A stretch of 64,000 nt of DNA from Chthoniobacterales bacterium (GTDB lineage Bacteria > Verrucomicrobiota > Verrucomicrobiia > Chthoniobacterales > UBA10450), in NCBI GenBank assembly GCA_038323965.1, contig JBBQHM010000001.1, positions 889-64,888 on the forward strand, given 5' to 3'. The notes beneath the pieces are model-generated. The model searched no databases. It had not been told where the DNA came from and worked only from the letters and a program-made list of their open reading frames with translations. A program made the position numbers and the translations under genes. Position 1 is the first letter of the stretch, and the number at the start of each line of letters is the position of its first letter. Shown here piece after piece: positions 42,436 through 42,917 of this stretch.

Positions 42436-42490
42436 TGGGTTGGGCGGGACTCGAACCCGCAACCAACCCCGAAAGCTTTCGGGGCTGCTC
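42436..42490 (-). pseudogene. 3' portion of a tRNA-like gene (D-stem 3' strand, palindromic pseudo-anticodon arm, T-arm, acceptor 3' strand)
   Basis: Minus strand reads GAGCAGCCCCGAAAGCTTTCGGGGTTGGTTGCGGGTTCGAGTCCCGCCCAACCCA. The T-arm and acceptor are identical to tRNA-Lys at 42739-42810. It begins directly after the GIY-YIG stop codon. Confidence 0.8.
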
Positions 42491-42730
42491 TCATTGATTC
42501 AATTTAAAAATCGCCAGCTGCGGATTTTTCTTTGCTTTCAATTGCAGCTCTAGCTTCCGGGCTTCGGACATTGAAGGCACCTGCTTGGCTGCAACAATTA
42601 CAGGCTTGGCGCCGAAGCGATGCGTGCTGTGATTACTGCCACGCTCATGCTCCGCCAGTCGACGTTCAAGGTTCTCTGTCGCTCCGATGTAGTGGCGACG
42701 CGCGCAGCGCAAGATGTAAACCCAAGCCAT
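42491..42730 (-). CDS. minimal GIY-YIG nuclease-domain protein (URI-domain only, 79 aa)
   Basis: MAWVYILRCARRHYIGATENLERRLAEHERG...EARKLELQLK has the GIY (VYIL), YIG, Arg and Glu catalytic-core elements. The ATG lies 8 nt after the tRNA-Lys 3' end. Confidence 0.8.
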   Translation of the reverse strand: MAWVYILRCARRHYIGATENLERRLAEHERGSNHSTHRFGAKPVIVAAKQVPSMSEARKLELQLKAKKNPQLAIFKLNQ

Positions 42731-42738
42731 AAGATAGC

Positions 42739-42810
42739 TGGGTTGGGCGGGACTCGAACCCGCAACCAACGCCTTAAAAGGGCGCTGCTCTACCATTGAG
42801 CTACCAACCC
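42739..42810 (-). tRNA. tRNA-Lys (anticodon UUU)
   Basis: GGGTTGG TA GCTC AATGGTA GAGC A GCGCC CTTTTAA GGCGT TGGTT GCGGG TTCGAGT CCCGC CCAACCC A. Canonical cloverleaf, 72 nt, CCA not encoded. Confidence 0.93.
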
Positions 42811-42844
42811 GTGGAGTCCGTTTTACGCGCGACGCGCCCATCTG

Positions 42845-42896
42845 GCAACCAACCCCGAATGCTTTCGGGGCTGCTCTACCATTGAGCTACCAACCC
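42845..42896 (-). pseudogene. 5' portion of a tRNA-like gene (acceptor 5' strand, D-arm, palindromic pseudo-anticodon arm, variable loop), truncated at the T-stem
   Basis: Minus strand reads GGGTTGGTAGCTCAATGGTAGAGCAGCCCCGAAAGCATTCGGGGTTGGTTGC, then unrelated sequence. The first 25 nt are identical to tRNA-Lys. Confidence 0.8.
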
Positions 42897-42917
42897 GCAC
42901 AGAGATGACGTTTTAAT

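Follow-up and report, generated by a model that had tools for sequence, protein, structure and literature searches.

A minimal GIY-YIG nuclease gene between hairpin-bearing tRNA fragments at tRNA-Lys of a Chthoniobacterales bacterium: a candidate Ssn-like cassette

On the minus strand of a 64-kb stretch of DNA from a Chthoniobacterales bacterium (assembly GCA_038323965.1, contig JBBQHM010000001.1, positions 889 to 64,888; the window) lies a short open reading frame (ORF) for a 79-residue GIY-YIG protein. It directly follows an intact tRNA-Lys(UUU) gene and is bracketed by partial copies of that gene in which a hairpin, termed H, takes the place of the anticodon arm. Since the arrangement recurs, with gains, losses and exchanges, at tRNA-Lys and tRNA-Met genes of many soil Verrucomicrobia, the whole looks like a small mobile nuclease-plus-hairpin module, and not like a set of decayed tRNA duplicates. 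We put about even weight on reading it as an Ssn-like hairpin-directed nuclease cassette in tRNA genes, which would be expressed from the tRNA promoter and whose tRNA-derived flanks would serve as recombination arms. The original prediction, which had been made from the DNA letters alone, knew of no bacterial module of this form, and in the literature that we searched no bacterial tRNA plus minimal GIY-YIG module is described. A hairpin-nuclease-hairpin architecture was, however, described in 2025 for the Ssn nucleases and their NTS repeat, without the tRNA connection (PMC11893778), so that the claim of novelty has to be qualified.

All features of the cassette are on the minus strand. A 5′ tRNA part (42896-42845) is followed by a 34-nt spacer, the tRNA-Lys(UUU) gene, 8 nt, the 79-residue ORF and a 3′ tRNA part (42490-42436), an order and a set of coordinates that ARAGORN, Rfam, Pfam and a repeat finder bear out to the base. 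Behind a native leader (L1, 42897..42940), which is ∼97% identical to that of the related locus L093, the 5′ part opens with F (42871..42896), a 26-nt copy of the tRNA-Lys 5′ half that comprises the acceptor 5′ strand and the D arm through GAGCAG and matches the intact tRNA base for base over positions 1-26. Next come the upstream copy of H (42853..42870; CCCCGAAAGCATTCGGGG), identified by palindrome search and folding, and t′ (42845..42852; TTGGTTGC), the initial 8 nt of the tRNA 3′ half, with which the fragment ends. The spacer, or second leader (L2, 42811..42844), is unlike L1, shares a TAAAAC motif with it and is identical to its L093 counterpart at 33 of 34 positions. It leads into the intact tRNA-Lys(UUU) (42739..42810), which ARAGORN calls as tRNA-Lys(ttt), Rfam scores at 77.9 bits against a gathering score of 29, and whose cloverleaf has a minimum free energy of −33.3 kcal/mol. 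An 8-nt spacer (x, GCTATCTT, 42731..42738) separates the tRNA 3′ end from the ATG of the ORF (42491..42730 with its stop codon), which matches Pfam PF01541 over residues 1-70 (1.3e-13). Downstream, F′ (42485..42490) is the GAGCAG remnant of the tRNA 5′ half and at the same time the conserved 5′ flank of the hairpin, since it precedes 131 of the 149 H copies collected from related loci. The downstream H, a perfect palindrome (CCCCGAAAGCTTTCGGGG, 42467..42484), begins 6 nt past the stop codon, and T (42436..42466), a 31-nt copy of the tRNA-Lys 3′ half with variable loop, T arm, acceptor 3′ strand and discriminator, is identical to the corresponding part of the intact gene.

The repetition is specific to this locus. 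Within the 64 kb the 18-nt palindrome CCCCGAAAGC(A/T)TTCGGGG occurs only at 42467-42484 and 42853-42870 (chance expectation 0.03), both times between oriented GAGCAG and TTGGT flanks, and the T-arm/acceptor 25-mer has only two occurrences (expected 0.00). The repeat finder returned a 33-nt direct repeat (42459-42491 and 42845-42877), a 31-nt repeat of the 5′ half (42781-42811 and 42867-42897) and a 35-nt repeat of the 3′ half (42436-42470 and 42739-42773), each at 97% identity. The middle tRNA is the sole tRNA that ARAGORN and Rfam call here; a scan of the locus against Rfam gave nothing beyond tRNA, with weak YrlA and mascRNA matches far under threshold. An acceptor/T-arm minihelix formed by the 3′ part (GGGTTGG:CCAACCC, following the mascRNA-like alignment) was considered and dropped, as Met-type copies cannot form one. 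A consensus scan of the module for promoters and terminators found no sites.

The ORF is a real and conserved gene, as the original prediction had supposed. Its ∼200 homologues (79-88 residues, 65-78% identity) all begin with MAWVY, which supports 79 residues as the length of the protein. The public record P0001 (101 residues) and the mechanically derived 116-residue ORF (42491-42841, minus strand) both start within the tRNA-Lys gene; a look-up of the window's own protein found nothing on record. Several homologues, P0075 and P0012 among them, have likewise been called too long and read through tRNA-derived sequence into peptides like 'GSSP'. Over 139 pairs the ratio of nonsynonymous to synonymous substitution rates (dN/dS) is about 0.12. 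With a median dS of 1.36, synonymous sites are saturated, and third codon positions are free to vary along the ORF. Judged by these substitution patterns the ORF is under purifying selection. Residues Y5, Y14, G16, R23, R24, H28, N33 and E61 are invariant and N69 is nearly so (≥90%). An AlphaFold2 model forms one compact domain (predicted local distance difference test score 87.5), and the chain stops at residue 79 with neither a linker nor a C-terminal DNA-binding domain. From these residues and this fold we predict a catalytically intact, single-domain GIY-YIG protein. The best profile matches are the UPF0213 protein BH0048 (1zg2; E=2e-7, 34.3 bits), EF2693 (1ywl; 1.5e-4) and Slx1 (6seh; 1.5e-3), and Foldseek ranked 1zg2, Slx1 and the UvrC N-terminal domain highest, with no I-TevI-type protein among the top structural matches. 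Searches with NCBIfam, PADLOC and PHROGs profiles returned nothing significant.

Searching one genome per species yielded 179 relatives, and the loci of the best 80 of these (L001-L080; labels run on from L001 for all related loci, and from P0001 for proteins) come nearly all from metagenome-assembled genomes (MAGs) of Chthoniobacterales/Udaeobacter. In ∼75 of the 80 the ATG is preceded on its own strand by a tRNA-Lys(UUU) or a tRNA-Met(CAU) gene, whose 3′ end lies 7-15 nt away. Across homologous loci this spacer is pyrimidine-rich and carries no Shine-Dalgarno sequence. Downstream of the ORF stand (G)AGCAG, the hairpin CCCCGAA-N4-TTCGGGG and the 3′ half of the local tRNA. Three arrangements are seen: form A, leader-tRNA-x-ORF-(G)AGCAG-H-T, lacks the 5′ part and makes up about a quarter of the loci; form B, leader1-F-H-t′-leader2-tRNA-x-ORF-F′-H-T, is the commonest and is that of the window; and form C, seen at L098, has the 5′ fragment only. 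In L094, of form A, an L1-type leader stands directly before the intact tRNA-Lys. Most related loci hold the upstream unit F-H-t′-leader in one to three tandem copies, and the downstream unit x-ORF-F′-H-T, about 320-338 bp long, occurs in up to three. The most amplified array seen, L024:2344-2993, has two intact tRNA-Lys genes, two ORFs and five hairpin-type 5′ units. F and T always copy the local tRNA, be it tRNA-Lys or, at Met loci, tRNA-Met, whereas H and its GAGCAG and TTGGT flanks are alike in Lys-type and Met-type cassettes. Lys-type and Met-type proteins themselves are ∼56% identical (dS about 1.4). F′ ranges from 5 to 22 nt. The end points of t′ vary by lineage and in many cases are immediately followed by the next leader's promoter-like start; t′/L2 junctions of several independent kinds fall at promoter-like −35 boxes, and in several genomes the L2-type leader resembles the native leader of a different locus type. 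Coupling to a tRNA gene and flanking by tRNA-derived repeats, both foreseen from the window alone, are thus common to the GIY-YIG paralogues.

H takes the place of the anticodon arm. The original prediction had spoken of an anticodon-arm substitute; the substitution is real, and we can now describe the substitute as a hairpin with a 7-bp stem and a 4-nt loop. It fills the 18 nt that separate GAGCAG from TTGGTT, an interval of 15 nt in the real tRNA. If F, H and T were joined into one sequence, the product would be predicted to fold into a cloverleaf (−39.7 kcal/mol, z=−4.9). The 149 H copies all have the stem CCCCGAA/TTCGGGG and differ only in the 4-nt loop. An exact 7+4+7 hairpin follows the stop codon in 60 of 80 intact homologous ORFs, mostly 4-9 nt past it, and a version with one change follows in 10 more (70 of 80 in all). 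These are exact-pattern counts, as a conservation profile anchored on the T loop is unusable with Lys and Met types in different registers. Stem-preserving variants (CCCCGC-AAC-GCGGGG and CCCCGAC-CCT-GTCGGGG) occur only beside the most divergent ORFs, L078 and L079; all H copies inside L078 share one variant, and L080 has a variant with a single mismatch. As the stem bases are kept while synonymous sites of the adjoining ORF are saturated, H looks constrained.

The 32-nt repeat shared by the two partial genes had been taken for attL/attR or a target duplication. It consists of this conserved hairpin with its GAGCAG and TTGGT flanks, which is also found at tRNA-Met loci, and its reading as an att site or a target duplication is not supported. 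One degenerate tRNA-Met copy (L057:2692-2741) contains several H hairpins, placed behind the acceptor 5′ strand and within the D loop, so H can land outside the anticodon arm. A second hairpin family of ∼18-25 nt (CTCC...GAA...TTTCGGAG, for example CTCCTGCTCGCGAAACCTTTCGGAG) has members embedded in non-functional tRNA copies, within their H loop, D loop or T arm, namely in L026 (after the second ORF), L055 (in an upstream D-loop copy) and L068, L069 and L076 (after the ORF), which suggests nested insertion of miniature palindromes.

The module is polymorphic and exchangeable, and this argues for mobility. For an occupancy sample, contigs were chosen through the neighbouring HAD gene irrespective of the ORF; the ORF was present in 3 of the 9 distinct loci so obtained. 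L093 and L096 are filled sites and L094 holds a pseudogene, whereas L097, L099, L100/101 and L102-104 are empty, each a plain tRNA-Lys gene with neither ORF nor H, and L098 has an upstream F-H-t′ unit without an ORF. The empty sites expected among relatives therefore exist, and all are ordinary tRNA-Lys genes. When empty and filled orthologous loci were aligned (L099 with L001, L097 with L008), flanks of ∼90% identity enclosed a difference of exactly [x-ORF-F′-H-T] after the tRNA 3′ end. Pseudogenes were found at L023, L041 and L094, the last having lost its start codon and carrying a mutated H. Exchange is most evident between the window and L093, whose HAD gene is 89% identical to the window's within the same HAD-module-HflC synteny. 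The two loci are ∼97% identical from the native leader through the tRNA and ∼96% over the final 55 nt of the ORF plus F′-H-T, but identity falls to ∼55-60% in x and the ORF's first 200 nt. The L093 ORF belongs to a different deep clade, otherwise made up of Met-type ORFs and Lys-type ORFs of other lineages. From this mosaic we conclude that cassettes are exchanged between ORF clades at one locus. Tandem ORF copies are 61-99% identical, and ORF divergence correlates only weakly with that of a neighbouring gene (r=0.35). As far as their sequences go, recombination between F copies or between T copies would suffice to turn any of the observed forms into any other. In L039, L067, L080 and L105, tRNA genes are truncated precisely where the 5′ half (...GAGCAG) meets the anticodon arm, and the sequence upstream of the break is unrelated. 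A breakpoint that recurs in this way may mark a hot spot of cleavage or recombination, or else be an assembly artefact.

The closest parallel to this architecture is the Ssn family, ∼94-residue single-domain GIY-YIG nucleases that act on single-stranded DNA, where they bind a hairpin repeat (NTS/SRM) and cleave immediately 5′ to it, and that are inactive on double-stranded DNA and RNA (Chenal et al., Nat Commun 2025, PMC11893778). The cognate repeat stands on either side of the gene, as NTS-ssnA-NTS, cleavage could be rebuilt from two oligonucleotides carrying half a hairpin each, and motif copy number differs greatly among species; tRNA is nowhere mentioned in that paper (PMC11893778). For comparison, the Neisseria gonorrhoeae ssnA locus (L110, 25258-25593, minus strand) was recovered via pilT from a chromosome filed among plasmids. 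PLSDB entries NZ_CP119140.1 and NZ_CP119142.1 are indeed 2.17-Mb, barely annotated N. gonorrhoeae chromosomes, and matches to NTS on small plasmids had no GIY-YIG gene nearby. NTS begins 2 nt past the ssnA stop codon, with NTS clusters on both sides. Both systems share a GIY-YIG protein of about 80-95 residues without a DNA-binding domain, a gene bracketed by a short hairpin with conserved, oriented, non-palindromic flanks, a hairpin just past the stop (2 nt in ssnA, 4-9 nt here) and a motif layout of 5-6-nt flank, 7-8-bp stem, 3-4-nt loop and 5-nt flank. They differ in that the present cassette is embedded in tRNA genes, with its hairpin in place of the fragments' anticodon arm. The A1 family profile detects N. 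gonorrhoeae SsnA at 21.6 bits, and hhalign aligns the two with 90% probability (E=1.5e-6; 34% identity); across these comparisons identity is 34-36% over 64-66 residues.

Several observations weigh against an Ssn-like cassette. UPF0213 BH0048, at 34.3 bits, outscores SsnA in the profile comparison, so membership of the Ssn clade (cd10448) is not established. H lies outside the published SRM motif (HGTCWYN(0-2)YYVSBRHN(0-5)WNVSBRGN(0-2)RNCYNB), which had 0 matches in the window or the module sequences and, as a positive control, 11 in a 40.8-kb N. gonorrhoeae stretch, where 9 lie near ssnA. Nor was H seen in tens or hundreds of copies: away from the module there are none in the window and ∼4 solitary cores in 570 kb of related loci, which speaks against genome-wide amplification. 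These cores (L016:116, L016:4575, L022:2549 and L055:5711) stand away from tRNA sequence, have no GAGCAG/TTGGT flanks and recall the distinction between the dRS3 core and the full NTS in Neisseria. The partial tRNA copies are as well kept as H, with 1.2-2.2% mismatches per nt, or 1.6-2.2% when set against the neighbouring tRNA; gene conversion must therefore be active at the locus, and concerted evolution adds to the conservation. The functional tRNA can act as master copy for the tRNA parts, whereas H has none unless it is itself functional. H could also do no more than stabilise the 3′ end of the ORF's mRNA or terminate its transcription, and the first F-H-t′ unit could stem from local duplication or from import of a block with its own leader. 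Close relatives were absent from phages, plasmids and IMG/VR viral contigs, so no vector was found. Finally, the HAD/NirDL synteny kept in most Lys-type loci also fits long vertical residence.

If the cassette is Ssn-like, it could work as follows. The ORF would be expressed by read-through from the tRNA promoter, and tRNA 3′ processing would free its mRNA. By analogy with Ssn and NTS, H would be the cognate site of the nuclease, which may nick near H when the DNA is single-stranded, as it may be where a tRNA gene is heavily transcribed, at a replication fork or during uptake of transforming DNA. Such nicks would promote gene conversion, tandem duplication and deletion, with the tRNA halves, which hardly vary, serving as homology arms, and alternative pairing of F and T arms would give empty sites, forms A, B and C, and arrays. 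The same arms may carry the cassette across species borders by homologous recombination. With H in place of the anticodon arm, the duplicated pieces would not form a second tRNA, and the nuclease site would be set between the arms. A more specific idea, which we hold to be quite a long shot, is that each tRNA half with its hairpin (F-H upstream, H-T downstream) is no debris but serves as an adaptor for targeting: an arm would pair with a single-stranded, cassette-less tRNA gene and so bring the hairpin-bound nuclease to the anticodon-arm boundaries. It is compatible with the split-oligonucleotide cleavage by Ssn (PMC11893778), with the truncations at L039, L067, L080 and L105, and with the constancy of H beside arms that change along with the resident tRNA. 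If true, it would make the cassette a nucleic-acid-guided homing system with an 80-residue nuclease in a ∼330-bp autonomous unit, retargeted by a swap of arms (Lys versus Met).

Two other accounts are the main rivals of the Ssn-like cassette. In one, the protein is a free-standing homing endonuclease that makes a double-strand break in cassette-less tRNA-Lys or tRNA-Met genes, whose repair copies the ORF and the partial tRNAs; H would only mark or immunise the non-functional copies by removing the anticodon-arm target. Exact presence or absence at a fixed site with alignable flanks, the swap of cassettes between conserved arms in the window and L093, pseudogenes typical of a homing cycle and tRNA genes truncated at the F/anticodon-arm boundary would all fit. 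There is also a precedent in SegB of phages T4 and T6, a free-standing GIY-YIG homing endonuclease in a tRNA gene cluster (PMC2330249, PMC13096335), which promotes inheritance and exchange of the adjacent tRNA region. SegB also causes a 718-bp tRNA-Tyr+segB unit to be repeated in tandem, a process that depends on recombination and joins the units at microhomology (PMC13096335). These tandem tRNA+segB repeats resemble the (x-ORF-F′-H-T)n and (F-H-t′-leader)n arrays, and the analogy with SegB drawn in the original prediction was apt. SegB, however, is encoded by a phage, has a DNA-binding region at its C terminus and cuts double-stranded DNA, whereas the present protein is bacterial and chromosomal, is flanked by a specific hairpin, had no phage relatives in our searches and at 79 residues is a catalytic domain alone, lacking the linker and DNA-binding domain that give specificity. 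Its best structural relatives are UPF0213, Slx1 and UvrC, not I-TevI. Moreover, the adjacent intact tRNA keeps the same anticodon arm, so a target within it would be self-cleaved, the Lys and Met anticodon arms have no common sequence, and the invariance of H is left unexplained. On balance we consider homing of this kind unlikely, though a serious contender. We think it somewhat less probable still that the ORF is a resident, non-mobile host gene, an Slx1/UPF0213-type nuclease long co-transcribed with tRNA-Lys, with H as terminator or mRNA stabiliser and the tRNA fragments as products of unequal recombination at a highly transcribed, repeat-rich locus. Strong purifying selection, one HAD/NirDL synteny in most Lys-type loci, the lack of phage, plasmid or viral carriers in our searches and a hairpin 4-9 nt past the stop codon, where a 3′ hairpin would sit, are what such a gene would show. 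Yet the ORF is patchy even in the ORF-independent sample, with empty sites in close relatives, pseudogenes occur, two deep ORF clades are found at one locus between near-identical flanks, and the same cassette is present at two tRNA genes and in other phyla, for example on the Acidobacteriota contig L060. A plain terminator, besides, would not hold 14 stem bases invariant next to saturated synonymous sites, and H has no T tract.

The remaining explanations fare worse. The original prediction saw a [tRNA-Lys + GIY-YIG] module that site-specific recombination or transposition would have placed in a separate tRNA-like gene, with the repeats as its boundaries. That L2 is unlike the native L1, and in several genomes like the native leader of a different locus type, is in keeping with this, as the intact tRNA and its leader may have come as a block. 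As in integrative elements that target tRNA genes, a direct repeat of a tRNA 3′ part bounds the insert and the tRNA is left intact; here, however, the insert is only ∼330 bp, the repeat has a hairpin for the anticodon arm, and a 5′-half copy lies upstream as well. The sole gene between the repeats is the 79-residue ORF, with no tyrosine or serine recombinase, integrase or transposase. An uninterrupted tRNA-like target gene was not found either: the fetched loci contained no free-standing F-H-T gene, and 12 of 12 matches to the pattern GGTAGAGCAG-N17/18-T in metagenomes stood directly after a GIY-YIG ORF, a pattern that detects hairpin-type copies only (the real tRNA interval being 15 nt) and yields no unbiased occupancy estimate. 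The empty sites are normal tRNA-Lys genes, the 5′ half is missing from form A and the ORF from form C, both units are tandemly amplified and t′ ends differently among lineages. Insertion of this type is accordingly quite improbable. We rate marginally lower still a propagation of the H palindrome by the nuclease in the manner of RAYT transposases and REP sequences, with tRNA loci merely housing the master copy. Chenal et al. draw the same parallel for NTS-ssnA-NTS (PMC11893778), and the H cores away from tRNA genes, the degenerate L057 copy with its several H insertions and the second hairpin nested in H, D-loop or T-arm copies would suit it. REP/RAYT elements (REPtrons) and IS200/IS605 do resemble the cassette as small nuclease genes flanked by palindromic hairpins, but they encode Y1 HUH transposases and REPs are highly amplified, whereas solitary H cores number only ∼1 per 140 kb in related loci and lack the conserved flanks. 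To our knowledge, GIY-YIG enzymes do not catalyse strand transfer. Lastly, decay of tandem tRNA-Lys duplicates around a spurious ORF has nothing more to recommend it than a superficial resemblance of the flanks to tRNA pseudogenes and is already refuted, leaving it a negligible chance: the ORF is conserved in ∼200 proteins with a low dN/dS and a confident GIY-YIG fold, and an identical non-tRNA hairpin replaces the anticodon arm in 149 copies.

By sequence and structure the best matches of the protein fall among the UPF0213 and stand-alone Slx1-like proteins (a class that includes BH0048 1zg2, EF2693 1ywl and Escherichia coli YhbQ), which are likewise minimal GIY-YIG domains without accessory domains (PMC1564403), but for which no hairpin or tRNA association has been described. 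A 106-residue GIY-YIG protein with 37% identity to the window's is encoded on a Sphingomonas parapaucimobilis plasmid (L108:1486-2534), where its gene overlaps the start of an RNA methyltransferase gene and does not sit by a tRNA; this is the pairing of nuclease and methyltransferase noted by Dunin-Horkawicz et al. 2006 (PMC1564403).

In the window a HAD hydrolase gene lies upstream of the cassette, and HflK/HflC genes lie downstream in convergent orientation. Relative to the HAD gene, tRNA-Lys has the opposite orientation in L004, L007, L008, L010, L016, L024, L030, L034, L041, L097, L098, L100 and L102 compared with the other Lys-type loci, with or without the cassette, and L001 carries, besides its plus-strand module, a decayed minus-strand F′-H-T remnant beside HAD (L001:1790-1880). 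This remnant points to past rearrangement at the locus. Inversion between palindromic H copies was rejected as the source of the two orientations, as the F and T pieces keep the orientation of the tRNA. The same cassette is present on MAG contigs labelled Nitrospirota (L008), Bifidobacterium (L064) and Akkermansia muciniphila (L067), of which at least L008 looks mis-binned, given its Udaeobacter-type HAD/NirDL synteny. On the 3′ fragments of L049 and L047 ARAGORN makes odd calls of 'tRNA-???(agct)' and 'tRNA-Glu'.

Thousands of single-domain GIY-YIG proteins are known, most of them still annotated as 'hypothetical'. If the Ssn-like interpretation is correct, it would provide such proteins with a biological context, that of a nuclease paired with a hairpin within essential tRNA genes, and would widen the Ssn paradigm by another hairpin specificity and another genomic niche; the pair would also be a candidate single-stranded-DNA nuclease with its hairpin for tool development. 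The locus is a trap for annotation, which places the ORF start inside the tRNA and calls tRNA-like fragments as odd tRNAs. Udaeobacter and other Chthoniobacterales are among the most abundant soil bacteria, and in these hard-to-culture lineages the cassette may serve as a marker of recombination and horizontal exchange. An autonomous-looking unit of ∼330 bp could persist and spread by host recombination alone, with the almost universally conserved tRNA halves as homology arms, and would then be the bacterial-chromosome counterpart of phage SegB.

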